Source: a virus
UHGV virus genome: UHGV-0317022
Direction: 5' to 3' (one strand)
Length of the DNA stretch: 22,796 nucleotides
Positions 2,920-22,636 of this stretch are shown here, one piece after another. The translations under genes were made by a program, and so were the position numbers. The number at the start of each line of letters is the position of its first letter. Within the stretch, counting starts at the first letter, position 1. The notes under the pieces are model-generated. The model was not told the origin of the DNA. It searched no databases and saw only the letters and a program-made list of their open reading frames with translations.

Positions 2920-3789
<870 letters not shown>

Positions 3790-3867: not shown

Positions 3868-3985
3868 GGACCGGTCTCAAAAACCGCAGGCACGTTGTAT
3901 GCAAGAACGTGCTGTGGCTGGCTGGTGAACTTTCGATAGTGCGAGTATTGAATGATTTCCAGCCGTTATCGATTTTACGTATTAA
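3868..3985. repeat. ~115-bp repeat element, copy A (hairpin plus conserved tail)
   Basis: AAACCGCAGgCACGttGTATGCAAGAACGTGCTGtGGcTGGCTGGTGAACTTtCGATAGtGCGAGTATTGAATGATTTcCAGCCGTTATcGATTTTACgTATT closely matches 5641-5760. The hairpin core is also related to the tfa terminator at 2865-2897. Confidence 0.6.
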
Positions 3986-4321: not shown

Positions 4322-4681
4322 ATGTTAACGCCGTTTGGTAAGACAGTAAGAAAAATGCGCATAGACTTGGGGCTTACGCTTAAAAGCATGGCTGAGGCTA
4401 TGGGCATGACCTCGTCTTATCTTTCAGCGATCGAAACTGGTAAAAGGGCGGTCACTAAGCCCGTGCTTGATAGCATCATTAGCTATTTTAATGCGGATGA
4501 AAAACAAAAAGAAAAGCTTATCAGTGCAGCTCGTGACTCTCAGCAGTCAGTAGAGATCAGCTTGTCAGGTAAGAATGGCCACGCTCGTGAAGTCGCAATT
4601 GCGTTCGCTCGTAGTTTTGATGAGTTAAATGAAGAAGACTTCCGTAATTTACGACAGATTTTGAATCGAAAACAGCAGTAG
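4322..4681 (+). CDS. XRE-family helix-turn-helix transcriptional regulator
   Basis: 119 aa with the HTH signature LGLTLKSMAEAMGMTSSYLSAIETGKR. GGAGAAG lies upstream of the ATG, and the stop is 8 nt before the next gene. Confidence 0.8.
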   Translation: MLTPFGKTVRKMRIDLGLTLKSMAEAMGMTSSYLSAIETGKRAVTKPVLDSIISYFNADEKQKEKLISAARDSQQSVEISLSGKNGHAREVAIAFARSFDELNEEDFRNLRQILNRKQQ

Positions 4682-4689
4682 GAGGCGGC

Positions 4690-5211
4690 TTGAGCGGACA
4701 AGATTATCGTGTACCTCCGCAGAATCGTGAATCAATACGTTCTATCGTCAGATCTCTGCGGAGCGCATTTGGTATTACTGGGCTTAAATTCCCTGTAATG
4801 GAGGTAATTGAGTTCGCATTGCCTCAGTTGATCCCGGATTTTGAGTTCCACATTGGTGGTATGAAAGAAATGGGAGAGACGCATGGTCTTACATACCCAC
4901 AGGAACATTTATTGATTCTGCGCGAAGACATTTACGAAGGCGCTTTGAATGGGGTAGGGCGAGATAGGATGACTGCCGCGCATGAACTGGGTCATCTTCT
5001 TATGCACAGGAACATCGCATTTGCTCGTTCTGCCCCAGGGGTAAAAATCCGCCCTTTTGAGAGTAGTGAATGGCAAGCTAAATGTTTTAGTGGTGAGTTA
5101 TTAGTGCCAGCTATGCATGCCAGTATTTTAAAAGGTATGACGGCTGAGGATGTTGCTGAGGCATGCGGAGTTTCATTAGTGGCAGCGCGTTATCAGCTAG
5201 ACAAAATGTAA
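4690..5211 (+). CDS. ImmA/IrrE-family zinc metallopeptidase (HEXXH)
   Basis: 173 aa containing the AAHELGHLLMH (HExxH) motif. It is tightly coupled to the upstream HTH gene (AGGAGG, then a TTG start at 4690), the classic ImmR/ImmA-type pair. Confidence 0.8.
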   Translation: MSGQDYRVPPQNRESIRSIVRSLRSAFGITGLKFPVMEVIEFALPQLIPDFEFHIGGMKEMGETHGLTYPQEHLLILREDIYEGALNGVGRDRMTAAHELGHLLMHRNIAFARSAPGVKIRPFESSEWQAKCFSGELLVPAMHASILKGMTAEDVAEACGVSLVAARYQLDKM

Positions 5212-5640: not shown

Positions 5641-5760
5641 TGGCGGGAGTTGAAACCGCAGCCACGTCGTATGCAAGAACGTGCTGCGGTTGGCTGGTGA
5701 ACTTCCGATAGGGCGAGTATTGAATGATTTACAGCCGTTATTGATTTTACATATTTTTTG
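5641..5760. repeat. ~115-bp repeat element, copy B
   Basis: AAACCGCAGCCACGTCGTATGCAAGAACGTGCTGCGGTTGGCTGGTGAACTTCCGATAGGGCGAGTATTGAATGATTTACAGCCGTTATTGATTTTACATATT; direct repeat of 3868-3985 with a few substitutions. Confidence 0.6.
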
Positions 5761-5905: not shown

Positions 5906-6376
5906 ATGAAAGTCAGTCAACTCAAAATCATATCTCACAATGATATATTACCTGCTCTTTTAGGAAGAGTGTTCCATGTTACGCCTGAAAATAATATGTC
6001 TCTCATAAAACAGTCCGGCGCTTTGATCCCAAACTCGGAATTATTGCAGATGTCAAGATTTGGAAACTCATCAAATGGTTTTTTCAGACGGCGTAACTGT
6101 GTTTCCTTTTTTGACTACAGATGTTATGGGACTAAGCATTGGGAAGAACATGCCTATAAATGTTTTCCAACTCAGTTTATAAAACATGTGCCTAATGATA
6201 GAATTTCAATACTATTTCTTCATGAAAGCAAATTCGATAAATTGATCCCCTGGACTGCATGGAAAGCAGAAGAGGCATGGAGTGATAGGGTGGTCCCATA
6301 CGTTGAAACTGGATATAAAGGCATAGTCTCCTTAAGTGAGATTACTGAAGAGTTAATTGTTGGGTTTGACTGCTAG
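5906..6376 (+). CDS. Hypothetical protein (156 aa), AT-rich gene
   Basis: Uninterrupted ORF in a visibly AT-rich stretch. No family recognised with confidence; the N-terminal RVFHVTPENNMSLIKQSGAL is only faintly reminiscent of ART/DarT-like N-termini. Confidence 0.5.
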   Translation: MKVSQLKIISHNDILPALLGRVFHVTPENNMSLIKQSGALIPNSELLQMSRFGNSSNGFFRRRNCVSFFDYRCYGTKHWEEHAYKCFPTQFIKHVPNDRISILFLHESKFDKLIPWTAWKAEEAWSDRVVPYVETGYKGIVSLSEITEELIVGFDC

Positions 6377-6480: not shown

Positions 6481-7899
6481 ATGACTCCCATTCCGTCTTG
6501 TGTATTCGATGTATATGCCTTATCGCTTCCCCGAGGTCTGGGATTTGGGGATGATCCTCCAGTTAGCGCTTGGGGTAGTCATGATCATGTCACAGTCTGT
6601 GCACTGACACGTAATTGTCACAGCGGAAAGCATGGCATTCTTATAATGCGGCGTCGTGAGGACGATGTATGGGCAGTGCTACGCTGGGAGTCAGATTCAT
6701 ATAGTGAAGAAGAGGCTTTCACAATTATACGTGAGGCATGCGATGAATCTGCGAGTCGCGTCCCTTTGCCTCCGGGTACACGCAGGCGCGCACCGCTTTG
6801 GGATGTTGAAGGTAGACAACCAAGTAACATATTCAAACTACTTGGACATCCTTGTAGAGCACCTGGCGCATGGATGCTTAATCAATTGTATCTTGCAATG
6901 CCAAATCCGGATACTCACTGGGCAAGAGAGTGCCAGACTGATAACTTTCATACACGTATTTGGGAAGCCATGCTCCTGGCCAGTTTCCGTGAGCAGGGGT
7001 TGTTAGTCACTCAGGAGTACCCCTCTCCTGATTTTCACGTAATAAACAGGTCAGGTGGAGAAGCCTGGATTGAAGCTGTGACAGTTAATCCATCGGACCG
7101 TTACGACCATGCCAGGGCTGAACCTCTGACGTTTCCTTTAAACCGACAAGACAGGGTATCGGGAATTGCGGCTGAACGTTATGCGCGGACCCTAAGGAAT
7201 AAACTGCGCAAGAATTACACTAGTCTCACTCATGTCGAAGGAAAGCCGTTTGCCATTGCTATCGCGGACTTTCACGCTCCCGGTTCAATGATGTGGAGCC
7301 GTGAGGCTCTAATTACCTATCTCTATGGATTTTATGGAAGAGAAAAAGAAATAGATGGGAAGGTTGTGGCTGTAGCAGAAACTGTCGACTGCCTCAAAAG
7401 CGACCCCAAAATCCGTGCTGGTTTGTTTAATTCACACGATAACATTGCTCTCTCGGCGGTTATTTTTTCTAATTCTGCGACTTTATCCAAGCTGAGCAGA
7501 GTACCTGTTTCTTCCGGCGCCTTGATCAAAGGCTACCGGTACATAAGGATTGGTGAGTTCGCTAATGACTCGGCGGGAGCCTTACGTGGCATCCCCTTCA
7601 GTATGGATGTAGCCAGTGACCAATATCGTCGTCTTTGGGAACCCTATAGTTATGAGCCATGGACTTCAGAAATTGAAATTTTTCATAACCCAAACGCGGA
7701 AAACCCTATAAATTCTACGCTATTTCCAGAGGCCACGCATTGGCTTCCAGTTAACGGTGAGATAATTTGCAAACGCTTTTTCAAGCAAAGCATTTTAAAA
7801 AGCCAAACCATTATTCAACACGCAGATGATCCAGTTCCTAATGCAAATAGCCTCACGTTTCAGGAAACTTATGAGGCAGACGATAAATTATTTGACTGA
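6481..7899 (+). CDS. Hypothetical protein (472 aa), function unknown
   Basis: Long ORF with an ATG start, on the same strand as and downstream of the XRE/ImmA pair and the 156-aa ORF. No recognisable catalytic motif by eye. The start codon is uncertain (internal Met candidates exist). Confidence 0.6.
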   Translation: MTPIPSCVFDVYALSLPRGLGFGDDPPVSAWGSHDHVTVCALTRNCHSGKHGILIMRRREDDVWAVLRWESDSYSEEEAFTIIREACDESASRVPLPPGTRRRAPLWDVEGRQPSNIFKLLGHPCRAPGAWMLNQLYLAMPNPDTHWARECQTDNFHTRIWEAMLLASFREQGLLVTQEYPSPDFHVINRSGGEAWIEAVTVNPSDRYDHARAEPLTFPLNRQDRVSGIAAERYARTLRNKLRKNYTSLTHVEGKPFAIAIADFHAPGSMMWSREALITYLYGFYGREKEIDGKVVAVAETVDCLKSDPKIRAGLFNSHDNIALSAVIFSNSATLSKLSRVPVSSGALIKGYRYIRIGEFANDSAGALRGIPFSMDVASDQYRRLWEPYSYEPWTSEIEIFHNPNAENPINSTLFPEATHWLPVNGEIICKRFFKQSILKSQTIIQHADDPVPNANSLTFQETYEADDKLFD

Positions 7900-8203
7900 C
7901 CTGCTTGATTCGCACAGAACGCTGTTAGCAATGTCCGCTCCTCGCTCATAACAGACATTAACTACAGTTATGGTAGAAGGTATGCATGCTGGGTGGGGAA
8001 AGTATGAAGGAAAAGAAGACTGCTGCGCCGTTTGTCGTCACATTTATCTTCATTGGCTATGCAAGTCATAATACAAGGTGGGACAAAACTGAGACACATA
8101 AGGCCTCACAATGGCTTGCAAGGCTTTACATGTTTTGATGTGGTGGGACGTGTGAGCGCAGTGTTGATGGGGTAATACTTTGAATTAGAAGCGGATTCTT
8201 ATA

Positions 8204-8249
8204 ATTCGTAATGCGAAGGTCGTAGGTTCGACTCCTATTATCGGCACCA
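8204..8249 (+). other. Partial tRNA-Thr(CGU) 3' fragment (anticodon loop to CCA), att core of an integrative element; not a complete tRNA
   Basis: ATTCGTAATGCGAAGGTCGTAGGTTCGACTCCTATTATCGGCACCA matches the 3' 46 nt of E. coli thrW-type tRNA as I remember it. The upstream sequence cannot form the acceptor or anticodon 5' strands. Confidence 0.7.
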
Positions 8250-8340
8250 TTCTAACGTCTCCCCAAGTCTACTCAAGTATTTAAAAACCTCTTATAATCC
8301 GCATGTTAGCGCCCCTTTTAGTCTTTTGACGTCTACTTAA

Positions 8341-8413
8341 GTACCCCAAAATCTACAGTCAATTGGGGGTACTTTTAGGGGTATTTGCTGTTCGGTTTAG
8401 TGGAGGTACCCCC
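8341..8413. promoter_or_regulatory. Putative integrase arm-type binding sites / int promoter region
   Basis: GGGGGTAC-type motifs in both orientations: GTACCCCAAAAT (8341-8352), GGGGGTACTTTTAGGGGTAT (8365-8384), GGTACCCCC (8405-8413). A near-identical copy of the 20-mer lies at 22528-22547. Confidence 0.5.
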
Positions 8414-8415
8414 AA

Positions 8416-9630
8416 GTGAAACTCAATGCCCGTCAAATAGACACTGCCAAGCCAAAAGAGAAGGCTTACAAGCTGGCTGATGGTGGTGGTCTGTATCTCC
8501 TGGTAAAACCTAGTGGAGGAAAATACTGGCGCTTTAAATATCGTGTAGCTGGTAAAGAGAAGCTGTTAGCACTAGGTGTGTATCCTGAAGTTACCTTGGC
8601 TGATGCTCGTGCAAAACGTGAAGAAGCTAAAAGGGGTATCGCTGGGGGTATCGATCCGATGGAAGCGAAACGAGAGGAAAAGATTGCCCGGGAAACGCAG
8701 TTAAACAATACCTTCAAAGATATTGCCCTTGAGTGGCACAGCAGCAAATTAAAAAAATGGTCTGCTGGTTATGCTTCAGATATCCTCGAAGCCTTCAACA
8801 AAGATGTGTTCCCTTACATTGGCAAAAAACCAATCGCCGAAATCAAACCACTTGAACTTCTGAATGTGCTGCGACGCATCGAGGGGCGCGGTGCTACAGA
8901 AAAAGCCAAAAAAGTGAGGCAGCGGTGCGGGGAAGTTTTCCGCTATGCAATAGTCACTGGTCGCGCAGAGTATAACCCTGCCCCAGATCTTACTAGCGCG
9001 ATGCAAGGCCATGAATCTAATCATTATCCTTTCCTCACAGCCAAAGAATTGCCTGATTTTTTCAAGGCATTGTCCAGTTACTCAGGAAGTGCATTGGTTG
9101 TTATGGCGGCTCGTCTACTGATTATCACTGGTTTGCGAACTGGCGAACTGCGCGGTGCATTATGGGATGAAATCGATCTCAACAAGGCTATCTGGGAGAT
9201 ACCTGCTTCACGGATGAAAATGCGTCGCCCTCATGTGGTGCCTTTGTCTAAGCAGGCTCTTTCTCTTATTGGGCAGATTAAAGAATTAACTGGTAATTAT
9301 CCGCTTATGTTTCCCGGCCGTAATGATCCAAGGAAAACAATGAGCGAGGCTAGCATAAACCAAGTATTTAAACGCATCGGCTATAACGGAAAGGTTACTG
9401 GTCATGGATTCCGGCACACCATGAGCACGATTTTACATGAGCAGGGCTATAACACCGCGTGGATAGAAACGCAGCTTGCACACGTTGATAAGAACTCAAT
9501 TCGTGGCACGTACAATCATGCGCAATATCTGGACGGGCGGCGCGAGATGCTCCAGTGGTACGCCGACTATATGGATTCGCTCGAACATGGCGGTAACGTG
9601 GTGCATGGCAAGTTCGGAAAATGTGGATGA
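8416..9630 (+). CDS. int: P4-type tyrosine integrase
   Basis: 404 aa with the N-terminus MKLNARQIDTAKPKEKAYKLADGGGLYLLVKPSGGKYWRFKY typical of P4-family integrases. GTG start with GGAGG 9 nt upstream; sits immediately downstream of the tRNA-derived att core. Confidence 0.9.
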   Translation: MKLNARQIDTAKPKEKAYKLADGGGLYLLVKPSGGKYWRFKYRVAGKEKLLALGVYPEVTLADARAKREEAKRGIAGGIDPMEAKREEKIARETQLNNTFKDIALEWHSSKLKKWSAGYASDILEAFNKDVFPYIGKKPIAEIKPLELLNVLRRIEGRGATEKAKKVRQRCGEVFRYAIVTGRAEYNPAPDLTSAMQGHESNHYPFLTAKELPDFFKALSSYSGSALVVMAARLLIITGLRTGELRGALWDEIDLNKAIWEIPASRMKMRRPHVVPLSKQALSLIGQIKELTGNYPLMFPGRNDPRKTMSEASINQVFKRIGYNGKVTGHGFRHTMSTILHEQGYNTAWIETQLAHVDKNSIRGTYNHAQYLDGRREMLQWYADYMDSLEHGGNVVHGKFGKCG

Positions 9631-9758
9631 CTGGTTGCGTATACAGTAGTAGACTTTGAGCGACGAAAGAAAAGGCTGTGTCTAGGGTCGCTCCCGAAAA
9701 TCCGTACACCTCGACGGACTGGTACAGCCACTACAGTAGAGGACGCTGAGGTGTGCGT

Positions 9759-10556
9759 ATGATTGATATTCATGCCGAATTAAACGAATACAAAAAAGAT
9801 TTTATTTCTTTACGTGAATTTCTTGAGGTCGTGCTTAAGGTCGCTGGTGATGATTATGATGTTTCAGATGTCATAACTTGGATACTCAGGAGAATAAGCG
9901 GAGAACATATCCGCCTGTACACAGTAAATGAATTTAAGCTGTTGGAATCTTTTTGTAACCCGTATCGGGATGAATTTGATTATGATGTTCTTTATAGAAA
10001 TCTGAATGCGGTTCGGAAACGTGGTTGTTTACCTGGTGAGAGGGATGAAAATGGTTTTCTGGTGTCCGGTTATTGGGAAGATCCCGAATTTGAGAACATT
10101 GGATTTATAAGGGGTGAAATTTTCGCAATTTTTCCCGATGTCCTTGACGCGTTAACGAAGCTGGAAGGCGCTAACTCTTCTGAAAATGACGAGGCACAAG
10201 GACGCGATATTGAAAAGAAAGAGTTGCGTACAGAGGATGATTTATTATCCCAAATCGCAATGCTGGAAAAAGAAAACGCAGAGTTAAGGGCAAGGATAGA
10301 GCAGTTAGAGCAAGAGCGCCCGATACACTTATATAAATACTGGGATAAAGACCCATTAGCTAAGGCTATTGAGATTAGAAACAGAGAGTGGGCCAATTAC
10401 GATCCAGAAAATGATTTTGCCACTAGGGGAAATCAAGAAGCGATAACCAGGGAGCTTAAGCAGTGGGGGGCAAGTAATGCACTTGCAACGCTCATAGAGA
10501 GGACTGCCTGCCCTATTAACCGAGACAACAGCCAAAAGAACGCAAAGCCGGATTAA
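9759..10556 (+). CDS. Hypothetical acidic coiled-coil protein
   Basis: ORF with GAGG 8 nt upstream of ATG 9759 (the track start at 9753 is a GTG). Contains a charged coiled-coil-like segment LLSQIAMLEKENAELRARIEQLEQE. Confidence 0.55.
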   Translation: MIDIHAELNEYKKDFISLREFLEVVLKVAGDDYDVSDVITWILRRISGEHIRLYTVNEFKLLESFCNPYRDEFDYDVLYRNLNAVRKRGCLPGERDENGFLVSGYWEDPEFENIGFIRGEIFAIFPDVLDALTKLEGANSSENDEAQGRDIEKKELRTEDDLLSQIAMLEKENAELRARIEQLEQERPIHLYKYWDKDPLAKAIEIRNREWANYDPENDFATRGNQEAITRELKQWGASNALATLIERTACPINRDNSQKNAKPD

Positions 10557-10570
10557 CGCACCATACCGCA

Positions 10571-10714
10571 TACCCTGAGGGTGATTTACTGTTACCCTGA
10601 GGGTATTTTTTTATCTTCCCCGTCAATTTTACCATCACCCTTAGGGTAGATTTCCTCCCGATTACCATCACCCTTAGGGTTAATTTCCTTCCGGTAACCA
10701 TTAGGCCTGAGGGT
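10571..10714. promoter_or_regulatory. Cluster of five near-palindromic CCCT(G/T)AGGG sites upstream of alpA
   Basis: TACCCTGAGGGT at 10571-10582 and 10593-10604, CACCCTTAGGGT at 10637-10648 and 10669-10680, GCCTGAGGGT around 10704-10714. The two CACCCTTAGGGT copies sit in a longer direct repeat TACCATCACCCTTAGGGT(A/T).ATTTCC. Confidence 0.55.
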
Positions 10715-10783
10715 ATGAAAATATTCGTTATTTCTGTGCCAGGATTACCTCGTCAAATTGAGTAGACGTTATGAGGTAAATAT

Positions 10784-10981
10784 ATGTCAAATACGCTTAT
10801 TCGTTTAACAGAAGTTCAGCGTAGAACTGGATATAGCAAGGCATGGATTTATCGCCTTATGGGGCAAGGTAAATTTCCTGCATCAGTTAAAATTGGCTCG
10901 CGAGCTATTGCTTTCGTTGAGAGTGAAATTGACGAGTGGATTAATCAGCGTATTGCGGAATCACGCGGAACAGCTACCTGA
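10784..10981 (+). CDS. alpA: AlpA-family transcriptional regulator (excisionase-like HTH)
   Basis: 65 aa: MSNTLIRLTEVQRRTGYSKAWIYRLMGQGKFPASVKIGSRAIAFVESEIDEWI, the characteristic AlpA signature. Confidence 0.85.
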   Translation: MSNTLIRLTEVQRRTGYSKAWIYRLMGQGKFPASVKIGSRAIAFVESEIDEWINQRIAESRGTAT

Positions 10982-11058
10982 TTAAATGGCTACGGGGCTA
11001 TTTCCCCCAGCTATCCACCAGCAAATAAAAGTAACTTAATTCGATAGCAGGAGTTTTT

Positions 11059-11859
11059 ATGAAATTTCCAAAAACGCCCGTACAGGGGCGGGGCTTCGTT
11101 CGGCCTGAAAACCAGAATCTGCAAAATTTCGGCGAAATTATCCCGATTATTTCCGGCGTTATTGGCGGGAGTGAAACCACTATTGTTAGCGCCAGAGCGT
11201 TACATAAGGCGTTAGGTGTAGGGCGCGTTTTCCGTTCGTGGATCAAGGGGCGCATTGAAGAATACGGGTTCACGGAAGGCGTGGATTATGAGGTTGTTGA
11301 ATATTTGAGCCGCCCCGATCCGGTGAGCGCAAAATCTCGCCAGCAAACCGCTCTTGAGTACATCATCACAGTGAACATGGCGAAAGAACTGGCGATGGTC
11401 GAACGTACCGAACAGGGCCGCGCCGTTCGCCAGTACTTTATCAAATGCGAGGAGGAGCTACACAAGGTTGCGCCTGTTCGTTCCGCAGCGTTACGCCGGG
11501 AACTGAAAGCCCGTATCACAGTTGCCAGCTACTTTAAGCCAATGTGTGCCGCGCTGGAGGCGTACCGGGCTGAACTGGGTAAAAACACACTCCAGCACCA
11601 CTACACCACGGAAGCGAACATGCTGGCGCGTATCGTACTGGGTGGCATGACTGCAAAACAGTGGGCACTGGCGAACGGCATTACAGGCGAACCACGCGAC
11701 CACATGAGCACGTTGCAGCTTGAGCACCTTTCTTACCTTGAGCAGAGCAATATCACGCTGATTGAGTTAGGCCAGGACTACCACCAGCGGAAGGCTGAAT
11801 TAATTCGTCTTTCGCAGCGTTGGTTAGCCCGTCGCATGGAGGAAAACAGCCATGTGTAA
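11059..11859 (+). CDS. AntA/AntB-type antirepressor-domain protein
   Basis: N-terminal SARALHKALGVGRVFRSWIKGRIEEYGFTEGVDYEV fits the AntA-domain pattern. AGGAG lies 6 nt before the ATG. Confidence 0.6.
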   Translation: MKFPKTPVQGRGFVRPENQNLQNFGEIIPIISGVIGGSETTIVSARALHKALGVGRVFRSWIKGRIEEYGFTEGVDYEVVEYLSRPDPVSAKSRQQTALEYIITVNMAKELAMVERTEQGRAVRQYFIKCEEELHKVAPVRSAALRRELKARITVASYFKPMCAALEAYRAELGKNTLQHHYTTEANMLARIVLGGMTAKQWALANGITGEPRDHMSTLQLEHLSYLEQSNITLIELGQDYHQRKAELIRLSQRWLARRMEENSHV

Positions 11860-13159
11860 CGCTCTGACCGTTACAAAAAGAGAAAGCGCCCCGTTGCCGG
11901 AGCGCCTTTGTGAACGAATAGCCTACTGCGCCATATTGCTTACTGTCTACGAGGCAGATTATAGCGTTGTGGTCGCACAGAGTGAAGGCGCTGATCACCG
12001 TTACTACAGCACGCCAGAAATGCAGAATATTTTGCTGCAAAATGTCGTTGGTCACACTGTCCGGAAAGCAAAAAATTTTGCTGGTGGCGCGACTGATGCG
12101 ATTTTGTCAGGTCGCCAGGTGCTGATCAATCTGATGTCTGATTTCGTTCTGGATAAAACAAAGGCGACCGCAGAGGGCCGCCAGTGGGAAAGCTACATAC
12201 TTGAACGCATCGCCAACAATGCCAGATTTGCGGCTGGTGGGCAATGTGTCAGCTTTGCACCAATGACTCTATGTTTAACTGAGGGTCATTATGGTGAATA
12301 TGCTGGCTTGCTGGTGGGCTATTCCTGCTCTTTAACATTGCCATGCCGCGATGTTTTCCAGGTATGCGACCCCATTTTTGTGCGCCTGTACTCTTTAAGG
12401 AATTTCTCAAGGATAAACGCACAGGGCGCGAATCTGTTTGACTCATGCTCGTACGCTATCTTTCTGCGCTGTCTTTTCCGTGCCGGTGATGGTGTATTGG
12501 TTGATTCTTTGTTGGTCATGGCGCAGCCCTGTAAAACGATGCACCGTAGTTCCTCACACCACGGCGCTGGTGATGGTTACTCCTGTTCTTTGGCCTTGCG
12601 GCGCTGGCGGTATTCAACTTCTCGCTTTAATGCTGCTGTTACAAACTGCCCTGTACTTTCACCAGGCATTTTTACCGCCTCAACATTGTTCATAACTTCA
12701 TGCGGAACCCTTGCCGCAACTGTTTGTGATTTTGCGTTTACTGCTTTTGTCGCCATGTTGTGTACCCCTTACAAAAAACAAATGCAGTATGCAGGAAAAA
12801 AAATAAGTGTTCAACACTTGACGTGTTTAACACCTGGGCTTAAATTGGTGTTCAACACCTTGTTGATGCAAGGTGCAGAAACGACAACGCCCCGCAGTGG
12901 TGGCACACATGCAGGGCGTCTAACCACCAACGATAGCAAGAGTATCGAGGTAGCTATGAGAAATCATACCACACACCCGCAAGGGCGGGACTCGCACAAC
13001 CTGAATAAATACATCTGGCGTTTTATCGCCCTGAGCACGGCACAACCGCGCGTAATTCACATCGAGGCCACCAGCGAACAGGAAGCACGCCAGCAATCTC
13101 CTGATGGCTGCGTGATGGTATTCGCAGCCCGTATTCGCCAGGAGGTGGAACATGTGTAA
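11852..13159 (+). CDS. Open frame of 435 codons; probably not one protein (N-terminal ~130 aa plausible, middle looks non-coding)
   Basis: The start overlaps the previous stop (ATGTGTAA). The N-terminal ~130 aa look protein-like, but the middle translates as low-complexity C/S/T-rich sequence and crosses an AT-rich promoter/operator region. A possible frameshift or missing stop cannot be resolved here. Confidence 0.3.
   Translation: MCNALTVTKRESAPLPERLCERIAYCAILLTVYEADYSVVVAQSEGADHRYYSTPEMQNILLQNVVGHTVRKAKNFAGGATDAILSGRQVLINLMSDFVLDKTKATAEGRQWESYILERIANNARFAAGGQCVSFAPMTLCLTEGHYGEYAGLLVGYSCSLTLPCRDVFQVCDPIFVRLYSLRNFSRINAQGANLFDSCSYAIFLRCLFRAGDGVLVDSLLVMAQPCKTMHRSSSHHGAGDGYSCSLALRRWRYSTSRFNAAVTNCPVLSPGIFTASTLFITSCGTLAATVCDFAFTAFVAMLCTPYKKQMQYAGKKISVQHLTCLTPGLKLVFNTLLMQGAETTTPRSGGTHAGRLTTNDSKSIEVAMRNHTTHPQGRDSHNLNKYIWRFIALSTAQPRVIHIEATSEQEARQQSPDGCVMVFAARIRQEVEHV
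12319..12519 (-). CDS. Small basic protein (66 aa), possible regulator
   Basis: Minus-strand ORF MTNKESTNTPSPARKRQRRKIAYEHESN...; looks more protein-like than the overlapping plus-strand frame. Confidence 0.3.
   Translation of the reverse strand: MTNKESTNTPSPARKRQRRKIAYEHESNRFAPCAFILEKFLKEYRRTKMGSHTWKTSRHGNVKEQE
12576..12756 (-). pseudogene. Small DNA-binding-like protein gene with an apparent +1 frameshift
   Basis: ATG at 12756-12754 with AAGGGG upstream gives MATKAVNAKSQT, then a stop after 19 codons. The adjacent frame continues VAARVPHEVMNNVEAVKMPGESTGQFVTAALKREVEYRQRRKAKEQE to a stop at 12578-12576. One extra A near 12718 would explain the break. Confidence 0.3.
12805..12860. promoter_or_regulatory. 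Divergent promoter/operator region with three GTGTT(C/T)AACAC sites
   Basis: GTGTTCAACAC (12807-12817), GTGTTTAACAC (12823-12833), GTGTTCAACAC (12848-12858). A sigma70-like -35 TTGACG (12818-12823) and -10 TAAATT (12841-12846) with a 17-bp spacer overlap the sites. Confidence 0.5.
12956..13159 (+). CDS. Small hypothetical protein (67 aa), first gene of a coupled small-gene operon
   Basis: GAGG 5 nt upstream of ATG 12956; MRNHTTHPQGRDSHNLNKYIWRFIAL... Lies downstream of the promoter/operator region. Confidence 0.45.
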   Translation: MRNHTTHPQGRDSHNLNKYIWRFIALSTAQPRVIHIEATSEQEARQQSPDGCVMVFAARIRQEVEHV

Positions 13160-13376
13160 TGCAACATGGCCTGATGCAGCGGTAGACGCTATCAAAACGC
13201 TGATGGATTCACTTATTGAGATTTCTGCTATCGCTGGTGTGGCGCATAAACACGCAGCCAGAGAATCAGAATGCATCTCCCATTATTTAGCATTTGTGCA
13301 GCTAAAAGCCGATCAGGCACTGGATAAGGCCGGAAAAATTATCATGGCTGATGTGCAGGAGGTGCACCATGCATAA
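13152..13376 (+). CDS. Small hypothetical protein (74 aa)
   Basis: Start overlaps the previous stop (ATGTGTAA); compact phage-like gene packing. Confidence 0.45.
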   Translation: MCNATWPDAAVDAIKTLMDSLIEISAIAGVAHKHAARESECISHYLAFVQLKADQALDKAGKIIMADVQEVHHA

Positions 13377-13734
13377 CCTGTCAATTTCTGACCTTAACAG
13401 CATTCAGTTTGACGAGAAATTTACCGGGCAGTTGCTGGTCAATGTGGAGAACGGGCGCATAGTGCGTAATTACCACCTGCCGGATGGTGCAATTGCCGGA
13501 AGCGTTGAAGCATTGCTGGAACTGGCGGAACGTGCGCGACTGATTAAGCCGTCAACGAGCCATCACGATGATGATCTGCATTTTACCGGGCGTATGGTGA
13601 GTCACTACGAAAACGGCGTTGAAGTATCCCGCGAACGGCTGCGTGATGATTGCTGTTTCGGCACACTGCCGGAATTTATCGAGTTGCTGACCAGTTGCGG
13701 TTATCAGGTCATTCAGGGGGGTAAACATGCGTGA
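13369..13734 (+). CDS. Small hypothetical protein (~121 aa)
   Basis: ATG 13369 preceded by GGAGGTG; overlaps the previous stop (ATGCATAA). The track start at 13351 is upstream of this likely start. Confidence 0.45.
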   Translation: MHNLSISDLNSIQFDEKFTGQLLVNVENGRIVRNYHLPDGAIAGSVEALLELAERARLIKPSTSHHDDDLHFTGRMVSHYENGVEVSRERLRDDCCFGTLPEFIELLTSCGYQVIQGGKHA

Positions 13735-13960
13735 TGATCGTTTTAATTCCCTGAAACGGGAATTTGATGGCGCACCGGAAGATGCAGCGGGCGCATTGTT
13801 GAGCGTTGCTGACATGATGAAAGCTGCATATTTTCTTATCAATACCAGTGGCTACAAGTCAGAGGGTGAAATGATTCTTAGTATTGCGTCGGACTATGCG
13901 GAATATGTGGCAGAGACGCGTTACAGAAGAAAATTCACGGAGGATGTAAGCCATGCATAA
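13727..13960 (+). CDS. Small hypothetical protein (77 aa)
   Basis: Start overlaps the previous stop; acidic protein. Confidence 0.45.
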   Translation: MRDDRFNSLKREFDGAPEDAAGALLSVADMMKAAYFLINTSGYKSEGEMILSIASDYAEYVAETRYRRKFTEDVSHA

Positions 13961-14153
13961 TCATGAAGCGCATGTACCCGTAGTGCTTAATGTGCCAGAT
14001 GATTTCACCGGACGCGTACTGGTTTACCTGGATAAAGGGAAAGTGAAATCACAATGCCGACTGAAAAGTAATGAGATTGTTGGTTCTCCTGAATTTTTTT
14101 CTGAACTTTGTATTCGTGCGGAAATAAAACCGGAACTGCTGACAGGAAAATAA
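13953..14153 (+). CDS. Small hypothetical protein (66 aa)
   Basis: GGAGGATG upstream; start overlaps the previous stop. Confidence 0.45.
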   Translation: MHNHEAHVPVVLNVPDDFTGRVLVYLDKGKVKSQCRLKSNEIVGSPEFFSELCIRAEIKPELLTGK

Positions 14154-14157
14154 AACC

Positions 14158-14448
14158 ATGAAAAAGAAAAATTCTGGCTTTACTGCCAGCGGCCTCTCTC
14201 GGCCTGAAATCCGCCCCGGTGATATTTCCCGGGACACCAGACGCGGGGGACGGGTGGTTATTCGTCACGTTACGCCAGGCAATATCACCTACCGCCGTGA
14301 GGCTTACGAATATGACTGCGTAATGCCGCGCCGTCAGTTTGATCGTGATTTTATTCTGGTGGAAAACAAACAACAGGCAGTGGCGAGACGTGCAGCCACG
14401 AATATTAAAAAAATCCGGGCAATGTTGGTTGCGGGAGGTAAGAAGTGA
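14158..14448 (+). CDS. Small basic hypothetical protein (96 aa)
   Basis: ORF immediately preceding the primase gene; its stop overlaps the primase GTG start (GTGA). Confidence 0.45.
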   Translation: MKKKNSGFTASGLSRPEIRPGDISRDTRRGGRVVIRHVTPGNITYRREAYEYDCVMPRRQFDRDFILVENKQQAVARRAATNIKKIRAMLVAGGKK

Positions 14449-16250
14449 AAAACGCACCGAGTCTAAAATATCAGCCGAAGGATAAATTCACTGAGGTAAT
14501 CATTTTTGCCGGGACGGATGCTTACGCCCATGCTCAACACTGGATTGAAAGTGAAGGACGAAAACACGGCGATAACGTGCCTCCTGTTTACCTGGGGCCA
14601 AAGCAACTGGCAGACCTGGCGAATATCCGCATTATTGACGAGAAACGCCGTTTTGCGCGTGTCTATATCGCGGGGGAGATAGAGCCAATCCAGATCAATA
14701 CTATCGCTGAAAAGCTGGCGCTGGCTGGCGTACAGGAGGCGAAATTATACAAAGGTATCACCGACCAGGAACCGGAGAACTGGCGCGACTACCTGCAACG
14801 GATCCGCGAACAGGCTGAGCACGGGGAAGTTTCAGTGATGAAATTAGCTACAAAAAATAGTGGTCTACCCAAGCCTGCATTAAATCAGATGGGAGCCAGC
14901 CAGAGAGGGGAAGTGTTACTTGAACATTATGGAGGAGCACTGGCGATAAATGATGATTCTGATGTAGTTCACCATTACAACGGAATTGTTTGGGAGCCTG
15001 TATCTGATAAGGAACTCCAGCGGTCTATGGCGAAGATTTTTATTGATGCCGAAATTAGTTATTCGCAAAACGCCATTAAATTTGCCGTAGAGACAATGAA
15101 ATTGAGTCTACCTGTTATGGGGGGAGCGGACAGAAATCTTATTGGGTTCAGTAACGGTGTTTTTGATATCAGGACAGGAAATTTTCGGGAACACAACAAA
15201 AATGACTGGTTGTTAAATGCCAGTGAATTACCGTTCAGCCCGCCAGAAGAGGGGGAAACGCTGGCAACACATGCGCCGAATTTCTGGAAGTGGTTGCGTC
15301 GTTCGGTGGCGGATAATGCTCGTAAAGCGGATCGCGTACTGGCGGCATTATTCATGGTACTGGCGAACCGGTACGACTGGCAGTTATTCCTTGAGGTAAC
15401 GGGGCCGGGCGGAAGCGGTAAAAGTGTGATGGCGGAGATTTGTACCATGCTGGCGGGTAAGGCCAACACAGTATCGGCAAGCATGAAGGCTCTGGAAGAC
15501 GCAAGGGAACGCGCGTTAGTAGTTGGCTTTTCGCTGATTATCATGCCGGATATGACTCGCTACGCTGGCGATGGTGCAGGAATTAAGGCAATTACTGGCG
15601 GCGACAAGGTGGCAATTGATCCGAAACATAAAGCCCCCTACTCCACACGTATTCCGGCAGTAGTGCTTGCGGTAAACAATAACGCCATGTCATTCAGTGA
15701 CCGAAGCGGGGGGATCTCGCGTCGTAGGGTGATATTTAATTTCTCTGAGGTCGTACCGGAGAACGAACGCGATCCCATGCTGGCGGAAAAGATAGAAGGC
15801 GAACTGGCGGTAGTGATTCGCCATTTGCTAACACGATTTACCGACCAGGACGAAGCTAAAAGACTACTTTATGAGCAGCAAAAATCAGAAGAAGCGCTGT
15901 TGATAAAGCGCGAAGGTGATTCACTGGTGGACTTTTGCGGCTATCTGATGTCGTTGGTTAAATGTGAAGGAATGATGGTGGGCAATGCGGAAATAGTGCC
16001 ATTTAGCCCGAGGCGATACCTGTATCATGCTTATTTAGCCTATATGTCAGCGCATGGCCTGGGAAAACCAGTATCACTGACACGCTTTGGTACTGATATG
16101 CCAGGAGCTATGGCGGAATACGGAAAGGAGTATAAGCGGGCTAAATGCACTAAAGGCCCGGATAAAGGGCGAGTGATAACAAATGTTCTGTTAGATGATG
16201 ATGCTGATGGCTGGTTGCCAGCAGCTACAGGGATTAACGACAGAACATAA
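14445..16250 (+). CDS. Replication primase-helicase (P4 alpha / D5-like, SF3-type NTPase)
   Basis: 601 aa with Walker A VTGPGGSGKSVMAEI and a Walker B-like hhhhPD segment. GGGAGG 6 nt before the GTG start; followed directly by an iteron-containing origin, as in P4/PICI replication modules. Confidence 0.85.
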   Translation: MKNAPSLKYQPKDKFTEVIIFAGTDAYAHAQHWIESEGRKHGDNVPPVYLGPKQLADLANIRIIDEKRRFARVYIAGEIEPIQINTIAEKLALAGVQEAKLYKGITDQEPENWRDYLQRIREQAEHGEVSVMKLATKNSGLPKPALNQMGASQRGEVLLEHYGGALAINDDSDVVHHYNGIVWEPVSDKELQRSMAKIFIDAEISYSQNAIKFAVETMKLSLPVMGGADRNLIGFSNGVFDIRTGNFREHNKNDWLLNASELPFSPPEEGETLATHAPNFWKWLRRSVADNARKADRVLAALFMVLANRYDWQLFLEVTGPGGSGKSVMAEICTMLAGKANTVSASMKALEDARERALVVGFSLIIMPDMTRYAGDGAGIKAITGGDKVAIDPKHKAPYSTRIPAVVLAVNNNAMSFSDRSGGISRRRVIFNFSEVVPENERDPMLAEKIEGELAVVIRHLLTRFTDQDEAKRLLYEQQKSEEALLIKREGDSLVDFCGYLMSLVKCEGMMVGNAEIVPFSPRRYLYHAYLAYMSAHGLGKPVSLTRFGTDMPGAMAEYGKEYKRAKCTKGPDKGRVITNVLLDDDADGWLPAATGINDRT

Positions 16251-16277
16251 TACGAAATTTATAAGCTGAAACGTAAA

Positions 16278-16613
16278 GGTAGACGGTTGGTAGACAGATA
16301 CACTTAACCCTCTACCAACCATCTACTAATTAATGTTTTGAATTATATAGGTATTTTTAATGTGGTAGAGAGGTGGACAGTTTATTTTATATTTCTAAAC
16401 CACGGGGGGGTATATAAAAACAGATAGTTATGGGTTCATTTTTAAAATTTTTATTTTAACTATCTACACTGTCTACTATTTATTAAAAATCATTAATTAT
16501 CAATGTATTAATACGGTAGACAGTTGGTGGACAGTTTGCAGATTGTTTTTTTGTTATATGTTAATAACATTAAATAAATCAATCAATTATATCGGTAGGC
16601 AGTTGGTAGACAG
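16278..16613. repeat. Iteron-type replication origin
   Basis: At least five copies of GGTAGACAGTTGGT(A/G)GACAG-like 20-mers in both orientations (16278-16297, 16311-16327 inverted, 16363-16380, 16461-16478 inverted, 16514-16533, 16594-16613), separated by AT-rich spacers, directly downstream of the primase-helicase gene. Confidence 0.7.
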
Positions 16614-16621
16614 TTGTAACG

Positions 16622-17164
16622 ATGGGGCAAAGCATGACAAAGCTGACCATTAACAGAAAACCGAAAGGCATTTACGGCACGCCGCAGAAAACGATGCAGG
16701 CGGCGCAGCAGCAGGATAAAACCACATCGGCATATAAAGTGATGCCCGGTAACCAGAACGCGCAACAGAAGCCCACAGGGGCGACACCGTGGCGGCATAT
16801 GACCAAACGCCAGCGCAAAAACCGCAGACGCGTTAACCGCCTCACTGAGTTATGGCCAGAATTATTCAGCCGGGAAGCACCGAAGCCGCTTAAGGTGGGG
16901 ATATTCGACGACCTGCTGCAGGATCTCGCCGTCAGGGGGCTGGCATTCGCTCTAGGGGCATTGCGTGCGACGCTGGCATCTTATGCACAGTGTCCGCGCT
17001 ATTACCGCGCCTTAATGGCTGGTGGGGTACGCTACGACCTGAAAGGCCAGCCGTGCGGCGAGGTGACACCACAGGAACAACAGGACGCAGAAACGCGGCT
17101 GGTGGCGCTGAATGAGAAGCGCAAACGTCAGCGCCGGGCAGCAAAGGAGAAAACAGGCGCATGA
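16622..17164 (+). CDS. FinO/ProQ-domain RNA-binding protein
   Basis: LTELWPELFSREAPKPLKVGIFDDLLQDL ... RYDLKGQPCGEVTPQEQ parallels the E. coli ProQ N-terminal domain (PLKIGIFQDL ... RVDLDGNPCGELDEQH) as I remember it. Confidence 0.7.
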   Translation: MGQSMTKLTINRKPKGIYGTPQKTMQAAQQQDKTTSAYKVMPGNQNAQQKPTGATPWRHMTKRQRKNRRRVNRLTELWPELFSREAPKPLKVGIFDDLLQDLAVRGLAFALGALRATLASYAQCPRYYRALMAGGVRYDLKGQPCGEVTPQEQQDAETRLVALNEKRKRQRRAAKEKTGA

Positions 17165-17448
17165 TTCACGACAGTAAAGCCGAAGCACTGGAAGCGCGTG
17201 GTCTGTACCGGAGAGCGGCGGCGCGGTGGGCTGAGGTCATTATGCTGGCGAACGGTGACAAGGCACGGGAACAGGCGGCAAAACGTCGAGCGGAATGTAT
17301 CCACAAGGCAGCACGCCCGCCAGTAAGGCAGGATAATTTCGGGGAGATGCGCGACACCATCAGCCGGGCACATGCCGGGATGGGATTACATCAGCCCAAT
17401 GGTGAGGCATTCAGGAAATACCCTGGATCGAAAAATTGCAATCAGTGA
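17161..17448 (+). CDS. PerC/Pch-family transcriptional regulator-like protein
   Basis: 95 aa starting MIHDSKAEALEARGLYRRAAARWAEVIM, which resembles the PerC/Pch N-terminal signature from memory. Start overlaps the previous stop (ATGA). Confidence 0.55.
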   Translation: MIHDSKAEALEARGLYRRAAARWAEVIMLANGDKAREQAAKRRAECIHKAARPPVRQDNFGEMRDTISRAHAGMGLHQPNGEAFRKYPGSKNCNQ

Positions 17449-17649
17449 CGGAGGCCGGGATTTTTCCCGGCTTTTTTGTGCCAGTAAAAAGCCCGCAGCC
17501 AGAAGTGTTGCGGGCTTTGTTTTTCAGGTGATTGAAGTCAATGGGAAGAACGCGATCATCATGCGTTATCGTTTCATAAATTGCAATGATATAGATCGTC
17601 ATTTCAGTTTATGCAATCATAACCATTGTTTTGTTCAGGAGGTATGACT

Positions 17650-17823
17650 ATGAGAAAAGCCAGCGTGAAACCCGTTTTACTCGCTCGTGATCAGATTGAA
17701 GCATTACAGCGCATCCAGGACGAGGAACGCCGCAATTCTCCGCTGGGGATTGCTCCGAGTATTCATGAGGTCGCCCGACGTTTAATGCAGCGGGCGCTTT
17801 ATCCCGTAGAACGTCCGGCCTGA
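17650..17823 (+). CDS. Small hypothetical protein (57 aa)
   Basis: AGGAGG 7 nt upstream of ATG 17650 (MRKASVKPVLLARDQIEALQRIQDEERR...). The track ORF starts earlier, at 17626. Confidence 0.45.
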   Translation: MRKASVKPVLLARDQIEALQRIQDEERRNSPLGIAPSIHEVARRLMQRALYPVERPA

Positions 17824-17862
17824 TGGTCGTGATTTTTTGGTGAAAAAAGAGAGGTAGTAACA

Positions 17863-18447
17863 ATGCCAGCAAGCAAAGAAGATTTGCGATTAAAACTGAT
17901 GGAGGTGGTTAACGCTCTGTCAGAGTCGCAGGGCAGCACTCCGCAGGAGATTATCGAAATGCTGAATGCGATCCCCGCGCAGGATTTCACAAAAGCGGAC
18001 GAGGATAACGCTAATCAAAACATCGTCGCGTCAGTCGAAGATGAATCCTCACTGGCAGAAGCCCAGGCTAAAGCGGATTCCGCATACAGCAATATGGGCC
18101 GTCGCGCTCCGGCCCCGTTTGCTGGCGAAAAGTCGATGGATTACCGCAAGCGCGCATTAATTGGCGCACAGAGGATAGCGAAAAAATTCAGAGATGTGGA
18201 TATTCGTTCCGTTTCAGATTCTGCAACGCTGGCGGTGCTGGAAGATCAGATTTACAAGGCTGCTCAGGAAAGTGCTCAGTGGGCCGTGGAAAACACGCCG
18301 GGCCATTTGGGTAAAACCGTAAGAATGGATGAAGCTGGTCGTCGTATTACTGAATATCAGGGCGATCCGAACGTCTGGCTGAACGCCTTCAAAATCCCTC
18401 CCCGTCGCCTGGTCAAAATTAACGTTGCAAGCCTCTCGGGGGCATGA
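17863..18447 (+). CDS. Hypothetical protein (194 aa), possibly capsid/packaging-associated
   Basis: GAGAGG upstream of the ATG; no family recognised. Its position between the regulators and the TerS-like gene suggests a morphogenesis or interference role, but that is inference only. Confidence 0.55.
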   Translation: MPASKEDLRLKLMEVVNALSESQGSTPQEIIEMLNAIPAQDFTKADEDNANQNIVASVEDESSLAEAQAKADSAYSNMGRRAPAPFAGEKSMDYRKRALIGAQRIAKKFRDVDIRSVSDSATLAVLEDQIYKAAQESAQWAVENTPGHLGKTVRMDEAGRRITEYQGDPNVWLNAFKIPPRRLVKINVASLSGA

Positions 18448-18511
18448 AAAACGTGCTGATTTCAGCCCTGTCGGATTTGGCGGGGCTTATTTCTTATAAC
18501 CGGATAACATT

Positions 18512-19183
18512 ATGCTTTTAACAGAAATTGAGGCTGCAAAGCAAATTCGGGACGGTCAGCTACCGTCGCCTTATCAGTTTTCCAACATGTGGCTGGTTAA
18601 CCTGCGTATTACAGGAACCGGTATGGCCTACCGCGCCGAAGAAAAAGAATTTGTCTGGCGTTCACCGCAAACTTATCTCAATCCGCAGTTCCTGGAACGT
18701 TGCGCCGGAGTACCCGTCATCATCGACCATCCCGAAAGCAAAACCCTTGAAGACGTGGGCGAACGGTCGCGCATTATTGGCACCGTCATGTTGCCGTATA
18801 TTCGCGGTGACGAGGTGTGGGGCGTATGCCGGATTTACGGGCAGGAAATCATCGATTACATCCAGAAAGCCCGGGGGGAGGTATCCACCAGCCCGTCGGT
18901 TGTGTTTTGTGGTGCGTCCGGTGGGGCAGAAGTTCCTGATGTAATGGGCGAGGACAATTTTTTTATTGAGGGTACACCATTTCTTATCGATCACGTTGCC
19001 CTCGTACCGTTGGGCGTATGGGATAAGGACGGGAAACCATCGGGTGTGGAGGTAACAACGCCGACAGCAGAAGAGCAGCTTGCCGGAATGGTCCGGGACG
19101 TTATTGATGCAGCCTGCAAGCCAGCTCTGGAAAAACTGGAAGAAATATCCGGGCGGCTGGCTCAACTGGAAAAAGAAGGGTGA
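18512..19183 (+). CDS. Hypothetical protein (223 aa)
   Basis: Uninterrupted ORF in operon context with the downstream HTH protein; no motif recognised. Confidence 0.55.
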   Translation: MLLTEIEAAKQIRDGQLPSPYQFSNMWLVNLRITGTGMAYRAEEKEFVWRSPQTYLNPQFLERCAGVPVIIDHPESKTLEDVGERSRIIGTVMLPYIRGDEVWGVCRIYGQEIIDYIQKARGEVSTSPSVVFCGASGGAEVPDVMGEDNFFIEGTPFLIDHVALVPLGVWDKDGKPSGVEVTTPTAEEQLAGMVRDVIDAACKPALEKLEEISGRLAQLEKEG

Positions 19184-19189
19184 GTCATA

Positions 19190-19717: not shown

Positions 19718-19722
19718 CATCA

Positions 19723-22289: not shown

Positions 22290-22300
22290 CAATGGAAAAT

Positions 22301-22547: not shown

Positions 22548-22605
22548 GTTGAAAACTAAAACATAAAAATATAATAGAAATCAATTGGTTATGTGGTTTG
22601 ATTTG

Positions 22606-22625: not shown

Positions 22626-22636
22626 AAATCAATAAG

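Follow-up and report, generated by a model that had tools for sequence, protein, structure and literature searches.

The region at positions 8204-8413 of the 22,796-nt stretch of DNA analyzed here (the window, from UHGV virus genome UHGV-0317022) is very probably a hybrid junction made by two unrelated tyrosine-recombinase systems whose targets are nested within one tRNA gene, thrW. This high confidence extends to the explanation as a whole, in which the attR of an upstream lambdoid prophage (prophage A) contains the nested core of a satellite, a further prophage (prophage C) follows the satellite, and the array arose through sequential integrations at thrW. It is well known that mobile elements commonly stack at a single tRNA gene in E. 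coli, and all components of the array are of known kinds.

The plus-strand segment at 8204-8249 (ATTCGTAATGCGAAGGTCGTAGGTTCGACTCCTATTATCGGCACCA) matches nucleotides 31-76 of E. coli thrW, which encodes tRNA-Thr (CGU), with zero mismatches in an alignment to the copy in E. coli GCM74-1-1. The reference was the intact 76-nt gene of that strain (L003, 3971-4046, downstream of proA), called as tRNA-Thr by ARAGORN. Because the anticodon CGT is at position 34, the 46-nt fragment begins one base before the anticodon loop and ends at CCA. The window lacks the 5' 30 nt of thrW and contains the first 28 nt of the fragment only once. ARAGORN called no tRNA in the window, and no Rfam tRNA match was obtained at E<=1, as expected for a 3' fragment. 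The 46-nt tRNA-Thr 3' end reported in an earlier note on this DNA, which was based on the sequence alone, is thus real; alignment with an intact tRNA-Thr gene, the check proposed there, returned an identical stretch in the GCM74-1-1 thrW rather than no tRNA match.

The length of this fragment is set by the integrase of prophage A and not by that of the satellite. A 46-nt att core has been published for SfI, with the statement by its authors that it is common to SfII, SfV, SfX, and P22 (PMC3636060). The string at 8204-8249, the core of the prophage A attR, is letter-for-letter identical to this published core, which the SfI record likewise marks as attP core. A four-way alignment showed that 8132-8249 is near-identical to the P arm plus core of SfI attP, and that the complete SfI attP corresponds to the left arm of the window, the core, and the right arm of the window. 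The phage-side (P) arm of attR spans 7931-8203 on the plus strand, and its 8132-8203 portion is the part that aligns with the SfI attP arm. Positions 7931-8138 are also common to the attP-adjacent region of phage 21-type lambdoids, 7934-8251 is matched by the right end of the phi458 prophage at 91.6%, and matches in many E. coli genomes begin at approximately 7930. The alignment of arm and core to SfI, taken together with the gene order in the genome VTB97585v, identifies 7931-8249 as the putative attR (phage arm plus core) of prophage A. This prophage would encode an SfV/P22-type integrase acting on a 46-bp common core that starts just 5' of the anticodon loop and extends to the CCA end; its integrase lies beyond the window edge and is seen only in the relative VTB97585v. 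The components of an SfV/P22-type thrW att site are all present in the window, namely the 46-bp core, the P arm (8132-8203), and the P' arm with the 3' end of int (22625-22796). The accessory genes of prophage A beside attP are defense genes (PD-T4-3, a PD-T7-1-like gene, and HTH plus ImmA). The ORFs at 4322-5211 had been considered as gtrA/gtrB, an assignment that was rejected on finding that they form an HTH plus ImmA/IrrE pair.

The satellite has a shorter core of its own. The only sequence repeated at both satellite ends is TCCTATTATCG(G)CACCATT, at 8233-8251 and 22607-22624, which gives the satellite an extent of 8233-22624 with 14.4 kb between cores. Within the window, CCTATTATCG(G)CACCA occurs only at 8234-8249 and 22608-22622, and the second tRNA-end copy noticed earlier at 22606-22625 is thereby confirmed. 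The attL copy (8233-8251, plus strand; TCCTATTATCGGCACCATT) is tRNA-linked, has the GG form, and is nested in the 46-nt block, and the attR copy (22607-22624, plus strand; TCCTATTATCGCACCATT) is linked to the P arm and has the single-G form. By this comparison of copies, the putative satellite core is the last 19 nt of the thrW/phage core, with an 18-nt single-G copy at the other end. In GCM74-1-1, where the satellite lies alone between intact thrW and paoD, homology to the window begins exactly at 8204 and ends at approximately 22640; the start falls at 8204 because a complete thrW precedes the lone satellite. The earlier reading of a partial tRNA beside int as a signature of integration therefore stands in that the fragment is the 3' part of thrW, but its 46-nt length is not the signature of the satellite, which when alone (GCM74-1-1, ARS-C101) has a complete thrW at its int-proximal junction.

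Core copies were compared across the window, four E. coli genomes, and five metagenome contigs, with eight P-arm-linked contexts set against eight tRNA-linked ones (six with full thrW and two with 46-nt partials). The P-arm-linked copies carry a single G (CCTATTATCG-CACCA) regardless of whether the chromosome, a phage P' arm, or the P' arm of another satellite follows, and the tRNA-linked copies are all GG; the sole exception to this pattern is contig L008. The single G is thus tied to the P side, and if the target was always a functional GG thrW, strand exchange would lie 3' of this G. This offers a sequence-based estimate for the satellite integrase, in which strand exchange probably occurs within CACCAT(T), 3' of the single-G/GG position, as suggested by a 1-nt polymorphism with one exception. 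The excised satellite circle would then be expected to carry the junction ...GATTTGTTCCTATTATCG-CACCATTCTAACGTCTCC... with a single G, and the scar left by excision would be a restored SfV-type attP, that is, the 46-nt block with GG followed by TTTAAATCAATAAG.

The P4-type integrase gene noted beside the fragment proved intact. It occupies 8416-9630 on the plus strand and encodes a full-length P4-family tyrosine integrase of 404 aa with three domains, Arm-DNA-bind_3 (PF13356), Phage_int_M (PF22022), and Phage_integrase (PF00589). An alignment to P4 Int covering 405 positions gave 43% identity, brought the HGFR and Y motif regions into register, and reached approximately 60% identity by eye over its first 83 residues, which form the arm-binding N-terminus. 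The protein is 49% identical to IntS of Sf6/HK620.

The 166-nt P' arm of the satellite (8250-8415, plus strand), which links the tRNA end to the start codon of int, carries arm-type repeats, and an identical arm follows the intact thrW in GCM74-1-1. The motif GGGGTAY occurs 12 times in the window against an expectation of 3.06 +/- 1.67, a count that none of 100 shuffles reached, and six of these copies fall within 8341-8412 and 22529-22547. The 20-nt tandem unit GGGGGTACTTTTRGGGGTAT is found only at 8365-8384 and 22528-22547, with none expected. An inverted GGGGTAC at 8341-8347 (minus strand) is an extra copy relative to the P4 layout. It is followed by a tandem pair with a 12-nt period (GGGGGTACTTTTAGGGGTAT; 8365-8384, plus strand) that starts 115 nt after the CCA end (112 in P4), and by an inverted copy (GGTACCCCCA; 8404-8413, minus strand) that abuts the GTG start of int at 8416, where the P4 copy overlaps the int ATG. 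Inside the int ORF lies a tandem GGGGTAT pair, also with a 12-nt period (8633-8651, plus strand), where P4 int holds one annotated repeat. The tandem pair in the satellite P arm (GGGGGTACTTTTGGGGGTAT; 22528-22547, plus strand) ends 74 nt before the CCA end (72 in P4). The repeats thus surround an approximately 20-bp core at a tRNA 3' end in P4-like number, orientation, and spacing. The repeats that the earlier note described are real, and they prove non-random and P4-like in arrangement, but they do not follow the tRNA fragment "immediately", the first lying 92 nt past the tRNA end. The tandem motif at 22528-22547 is intact in the divergent relatives L008, L011, and L012, in which the surrounding P arm is down to 73-79% identity, and its retention argues for constraint. 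From the P4-like layout and the similarity of the integrase to P4 Int, it is a well-founded inference that the repeats are most likely arm sites bound by the N-terminal arm-binding domain of Int, and the copy next to the GTG start probably has a second role in the autoregulation of int. A promoter and terminator scan of 7850-8500 revealed no int promoter above shuffled expectation.

At the opposite end of the satellite, 22625-22796 (minus strand) contains a P' arm and the last 52 codons of an integrase (stop at 22637-22639) of the SfV/SfI/SfII/SfIV/phi458 type, at 98.4-99.5% DNA identity. The 22625-22710 part is near-identical to the SfI P' arm, and 22625-22796 is identical to the int-thrW junction of VTB97585v, where the P' arm adjoins an intact thrW. 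Since an SfV-type P' arm and int 3' end follow the attR core, a second prophage of this type, C, begins there with its left end; the window ends inside both prophages, and the rest of C lies beyond its edge. Tandem occupancy of the site by two or more elements, proposed earlier from the left junction, is borne out here, for a third element is visible at the right window end, which brings the number sharing the site to at least three. Furthermore, the satellite flanks sum to one complete SfV-type attP, which implies a prophage, a satellite, and a prophage in tandem.

Such an array would result from sequential integration into an intact, proA-proximal thrW by C, then the satellite, then A, yielding the order thrW, A, 46 nt, satellite, 18 nt, C, with the intact thrW placed outside the window. 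Experiments have demonstrated that SfI, on infecting an SfX lysogen, enters the thrW/attL of the resident prophage to produce a tandem lysogen (PMC3306764), which supports this order. Entry of the satellite into the attR of A, or into the internal attP of a double lysogen, would give the same junctions; the succession C, satellite, A is therefore inferred, as the most likely history.

Related arrangements occur in other genomes. The closest complete genome, VTB97585v, matches the window at 97.9% over 78% of its length and has the order proA, intact thrW, SfV-type int, a lambdoid prophage of approximately 46 kb, tail fiber genes, 46 nt, and satellite, with the 3' end of the SfV-type integrase abutting the intact thrW. 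ARS-C101 carries a two-element form consisting of thrW, a related satellite, and an SfV-type prophage. Among 5,426 complete E. coli genomes, 505 contain the full int with its P' arm and 148 the composite left junction (prophage arm, 46 nt, satellite arm), so that the prophage-adjacent arrangement is found in approximately 29% of E. coli genomes with the integrase (148/505). An int remnant of 500 nt only is present in approximately 570 E. coli genomes. Only two genomes covered the right-hand satellite-prophage junction in full; the precise arrangement of three elements was absent from complete E. coli genomes and from GTDB representatives, and the exact right-hand junction was likewise absent from GTDB representative genomes. 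A metagenome scan provided five contigs, three of which (L010-L012) are chromosomal satellite-satellite tandems with junctions composed of a P arm, a single-G core, and a P' arm. L008, a 10.9-kb relative, has a 79-nt terminal repeat, as in a circle or concatemer, and because its int is without the first 40 codons, its circular assembly is suggestive only. The excised attP junction of the satellite was not found in IMG/VR.

The colinearity of the two flanks also admits an account in which three integrations are replaced by a single molecule, with the satellite inside the intact attP of one SfV-type phage genome; this genome could be episomal or assembled from virions, or the attP could be the internal one of a tandem double lysogen. 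The flanks indeed join into a complete, colinear SfI-type attP, the order tail fiber, accessory genes, attP, and int is that of the lambdoid vegetative map (SfI layout), and any SfV-type att site could serve as a target, given that the 46-bp phage core encloses that of the satellite. Nevertheless, this account is improbable. The record lengths of SfV-type phages are 37-45 kb, and a genome of this size enlarged by 14.4 kb would probably exceed the packaging limit of a lambdoid head. Both two-element intermediates are found in chromosomes (VTB97585v and ARS-C101), and tandem formation through thrW/attL has been achieved experimentally; as for the double-lysogen variant, it ends in the same final array and differs only in history. 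Far less probable still is the proposal that the 46-nt fragment is the duplicated att sequence of the satellite itself and that the upstream phage genes are an unrelated neighbor. A partial tRNA beside an integrase is the usual signature of an island, and the fragment does abut the satellite arm, but only 18-19 nt are repeated at the other end of the satellite, the lone satellite regenerates the whole thrW, and the 46 nt with the preceding 72 nt constitute the core and arm of SfI attP. Contradicted on these three points, the candidate was rejected.

The state of the satellite today is a separate matter. The junction could have been made as described and the satellite could since have become an immobile remnant, with its repeats and cores as relics, a reading that we regard as unlikely though not negligible. 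In its favor, the attR core is one G short relative to thrW, the ORFs at 17863-18447 and 18512-19183 match one PHROG profile in permuted order, approximately 570 E. coli genomes retain no more than the 500-nt int remnant, and IMG/VR yielded no excised form. On the other hand, int is full length with its catalytic motif regions aligned to P4 Int, the arm repeats are kept where the flanking arm has diverged, and the single G is a family feature tied to the P arm rather than a sign of decay. The same element also occurs in three different thrW contexts, and metagenomes contain satellite-satellite tandems and the circularly assembling 10.9-kb relative. Successive integrations of C, the satellite, and A at thrW remain the preferred explanation of the junction.

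The gene content of the satellite was compared with P4 and with EcCICFT073, an experimentally studied E. coli PICI (NC_004431.1, 1377930-1388654). On the plus strand, int is followed by an int-alpA RNA motif (RF02996; 9675-9742, 45.5 bits against a gathering score of 35.8), a 267-aa ORF without a family, an AlpA-family regulator/excisionase (10784-10981; Phage_AlpA, 2.4e-19; 37% identical to P4 ORF88/Vis and 37% to EcCICFT073 AlpA), an AntA antirepressor, and small ORFs. The middle part comprises a DUF4222 gene, a primase/helicase with D5_N, DUF5906, and Pox_D5 (14445-16250; 49.6% identical to residues 327-769 of P4 alpha and 43.6% to the EcCICFT073 primase over its full length), three 20-nt iterons (GGTAGACAGTTGGTAGACAG; 16278-16613), ProQ/FinO, and PerC. 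Last come two PHROG 6216 ORFs (one with DUF2213), a 175-aa HTH protein, and a PARIS-like pair (20321-22289) consisting of an AriA-like short ATPase (20321-21316) and a DUF4435 AriB-like protein (21309-22289), supported by PADLOC (AriA, 2.6e-43; AriB, 3.6e-22) and Pfam. The iterons, which lie just 3' of the primase gene, represent a candidate origin, and PICI origins are located 3' of the initiator gene (PMC6092414).

A tblastn search with all 14 P4 proteins returned window homologs only for Int, the helicase and C-terminal part of alpha (residues 327-769), and Vis/ORF88, and none for Sid, Delta, Psu, Epsilon, cI, Gop, Beta, or cII (E<=0.1 for Sid, Delta, and Psu); the window also gave no PHROG or Pfam matches to the psu-delta-sid operon. 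An AntA-family antirepressor is present instead of the helper derepressor Epsilon (Ash). SatelliteFinder defines a P4-like satellite by int, psu, delta, sid, alpA, epsilon, and alpha (PMC10085698), and the three of these seven components found here fall below even the Type C variant, which has two missing. The junction had been taken as the left end of a P4-like satellite: it is the int-proximal end of a satellite with a P4-family integrase, but tblastn gave no match to Sid, Delta, Psu, Epsilon, or cI, and the backbone is PICI-like. The module of Gram-negative PICIs is present, with int, alpA regulation, a primase-replicase with adjacent iterons, and conserved order. Unique att sites never occupied by prophages are a common feature of Gram-positive PICIs, and the abstract of the same source extends unique, specific sites to Gram-negative ones (PMC6092414). 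The site here is not free of prophages, as thrW is common to SfV/P22-type prophages and the satellite core lies inside theirs.

The DUF2213 protein has a weak match to a head-maturation-protease PHROG (5.2e-05), and the 175-aa HTH protein has one to a TerS N-terminal PHROG (3.9e-07) and no PDB sequence match even at E<=10. The latter was also considered as Rpp but could not be connected with it; its AlphaFold model (37 homologs, pLDDT 88.9) matched only Xis/BldC-type HTH domains in Foldseek, over 46 residues, and no Rpp entry. The satellite gave no match to lambda cosN when up to 2 mismatches were allowed, and the one match to the 10-nt SfI cos at up to 1 mismatch was no better than chance. 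The 14.4-kb satellite contained no matches to tail or lysis genes and no homolog of the capsid genes or packaging region of EcCICFT073. Overall, the element is a mosaic, for which the most apt description is that of a PICI-type satellite equipped with a P4-type integration module and PARIS-like cargo. Its resemblance to P4 is confined to this module and the helicase.

These results matter mainly for annotation and leave the current understanding of site-specific integration unchanged. They document a common mosaic that combines a P4-type integration module, a PICI-type backbone, and a PARIS-like defense pair. Moreover, the length of a displaced tRNA fragment identifies the integrase family that made the junction, with 46 nt denoting an anticodon-centered SfV/P22-type event and 18-19 nt a T-stem/3'-end P4-type event; fragment length can therefore resolve stacked elements and prevent wrong satellite boundaries. 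It is doubtful that the nesting of the 19-nt satellite core in the 46-bp SfV/P22-type core is functional rather than incidental. If it were, every SfV/P22-type att site (attP, attL, or attR) would be a landing pad for the satellite, the satellite attL would regenerate the phage target, and the satellite would be placed systematically beside possible helper prophages; the benefit could be in situ co-amplification or coupled excision. A satellite located between two prophages would also deprive C of the anticodon half of its attL core for as long as the satellite stayed in place.

The attachment region closely resembles P4 attP (NC_001609), in which tandem pairs likewise flank the core and further copies lie at the int start (inverted) and within int. 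The two integrases have the same three domains. The 12-nt repeat period is shared and the motif is near-identical, being GGGGGCA(T/C) (GGGGGCAT/C) in P4 and GGGGGTA(C/T) (GGGGGTAC/T) here, and both elements use a core of approximately 20 nt at the 3' end of a tRNA gene. Beyond the attachment site, the AlpA/Vis homolog and the helicase part of alpha are also shared with P4. In contrast, the target is leuX in P4 and thrW here, the P-side core here differs from the tRNA by a 1-nt deletion, and the N-terminal primase part of P4 alpha has no tblastn match here. The resemblance to EcCICFT073 lies in the gene order (int, alpA, divergent YlcI/YnfO, icd-like, small ORFs, DUF4222, primase, PerC), in PerC (52%), DUF4222 (50.5%), AlpA (37%), and 77% nucleotide identity over 760 nt, and in a size of 10-15 kb without tail or lysis genes. 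Unlike the present satellite, EcCICFT073 has an integrase that is only 25% identical, a site near roxA rather than at a tRNA, and capsid/decoration homologs plus Rpp, whereas ProQ, DUF2213, the 175-aa HTH protein, and PARIS are found here.

Physical association of PICI-type satellites with lambdoid prophages is also seen in helper-embedded PICIs, which, in the part of PMC10111431 considered here, integrate inside a late gene of the helper and are dependent on its orientation. By comparison with that part of the report, the present satellite only shares the chromosomal att site of the phages. In the thrW-integrating lambdoid phages SfI, SfII, SfIV, SfV, SfX, phi458, and P22, the 46-bp core is the same as here, the P arm, P' arm, and integrase 3' end are nearly so, and accessory genes lie directly upstream of attP in these phages as in the window. 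The difference is that a satellite with an integrase of another family lies here between the two phage att halves, and that the attP-adjacent accessory genes are defense genes rather than gtrABC. The Islander survey of 3,919 islands recorded 125 arrays with two or more members, whereas those with three or more were rare, at 4. As in those tandem arrays, every member here comes with an integrase and a tDNA fragment of its own, and the two crossover classes distinguished by Islander, anticodon-centered and T-stem region, both occur here in one tRNA. What sets the present array apart from them is that the two classes are nested, so that each element regenerates the target of the other.

The 17 nt that follow the CCA end of the tRNA-Thr gene thrW (TTTAAATCAATAAGTTAC, 22625–22641) belong to the SfV-type P' arm of prophage C, the second prophage in the window. 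They are nearly identical to the chromosome lying to the right of the satellite in Escherichia coli genomes that lack prophage C, as compared with L002 from position 30672 onward and with L003 (GCM74-1-1) from 19152 onward. Owing to this near-identity, phage–host identity may reach past the published 46-bp core. Related arrangements at thrW were also identified. Two different satellites with P4-type integrases lie there in tandem in the metagenome contigs L012 (OKNQ01000014.1) and L010/L011, their integrases being approximately 73% identical, and in these relatives the tandem repeat of the satellite P' arm has lost exactly one 12-nt unit. In approximately 570 complete E. coli genomes, including LF82 and APEC strains, only the first ~500 nt of the satellite integrase gene and its P' arm remain at thrW, and this integrase remnant carries the annotation Arm DNA-binding domain protein. 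In one further genome match, K-15KW01, no more of this P' arm than its initial 99 nt is covered, under a vat autotransporter annotation.

Within the satellite, an int-alpA RNA motif with a score exceeding the Rfam gathering score was located directly downstream of int (9675–9742). An open reading frame of 267 aa without a family match (9753–10556) occupies the space between this motif and alpA. Three to four copies of a 23–33-nt unit, TTACCATCACCCTTAGGGTAGAT, are found at 10586–10694, approximately 100 nt upstream of alpA, and represent candidate operator sites for the regulator controlling satellite induction. Directly 3' of the primase-helicase gene, an AT-rich stretch (16278–16613) carries three 20-nt iterons, GGTAGACAGTTGGTAGACAG, and is a candidate for the replication origin of the satellite.

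Further along the satellite, the adjacent ORFs 17863–18447 and 18512–19183 both match one 545-position profile, PHROG 6216, in permuted order, covering positions 402–544 and 115–328, respectively. The second ORF was assigned to DUF2213, and its match to head maturation proteases is weak; the homolog of the first in ARS-C101, an E. coli strain with a related satellite, is annotated as a NUDIX hydrolase. The 175-aa HTH protein yielded a confident predicted model (pLDDT 88.9), and its resemblance to known Xis/BldC HTH domains is limited to the N-terminal 46 residues. Directly 3' of its gene, at least five copies of AAAAAGTGTCAA, one of them inverted, are present at 19723–19945; these could be packaging or regulatory binding sites for this protein.

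In prophage A, the upstream lambdoid prophage, the segment from the tail fibre assembly gene to attR is a defence-gene island. It encodes a PD-T4-3 GIY-YIG protein (2920–3744, minus strand, 8.7e-140) and, on the plus strand, an HTH and ImmA/IrrE pair resembling CapH/CapP (4322–5211), an ORF without a family (5906–6376) and a PD-T7-1-like protein (6481–7899, 2.8e-69). A direct repeat of 103 nt (3881–3983 and 5653–5755, 91% identical) flanks the 1.8-kb HTH/ImmA module, with shorter copies at 2860–2887 and 16817–16844, of which the former matches the beginning of the 103-nt unit and follows closely on the tail fibre assembly gene. This repeat may mark cassette exchange via recombination between repeated intergenic segments. 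A full-length Rfam IS009 match (2609–2807, 225.7 bits) falls within the tail fibre assembly ORF (2266–2850). In the Shigella phages, the place taken by this island is instead occupied by gtrABC.

The satellite carries a PARIS-like pair (20321–22289) at its attR end; in the circular form this pair would therefore have the last backbone gene on one side and attP-int on the other. Its AriA is short, at 331 aa, whereas AriA of canonical PARIS is described as a 53–55 kDa protein.
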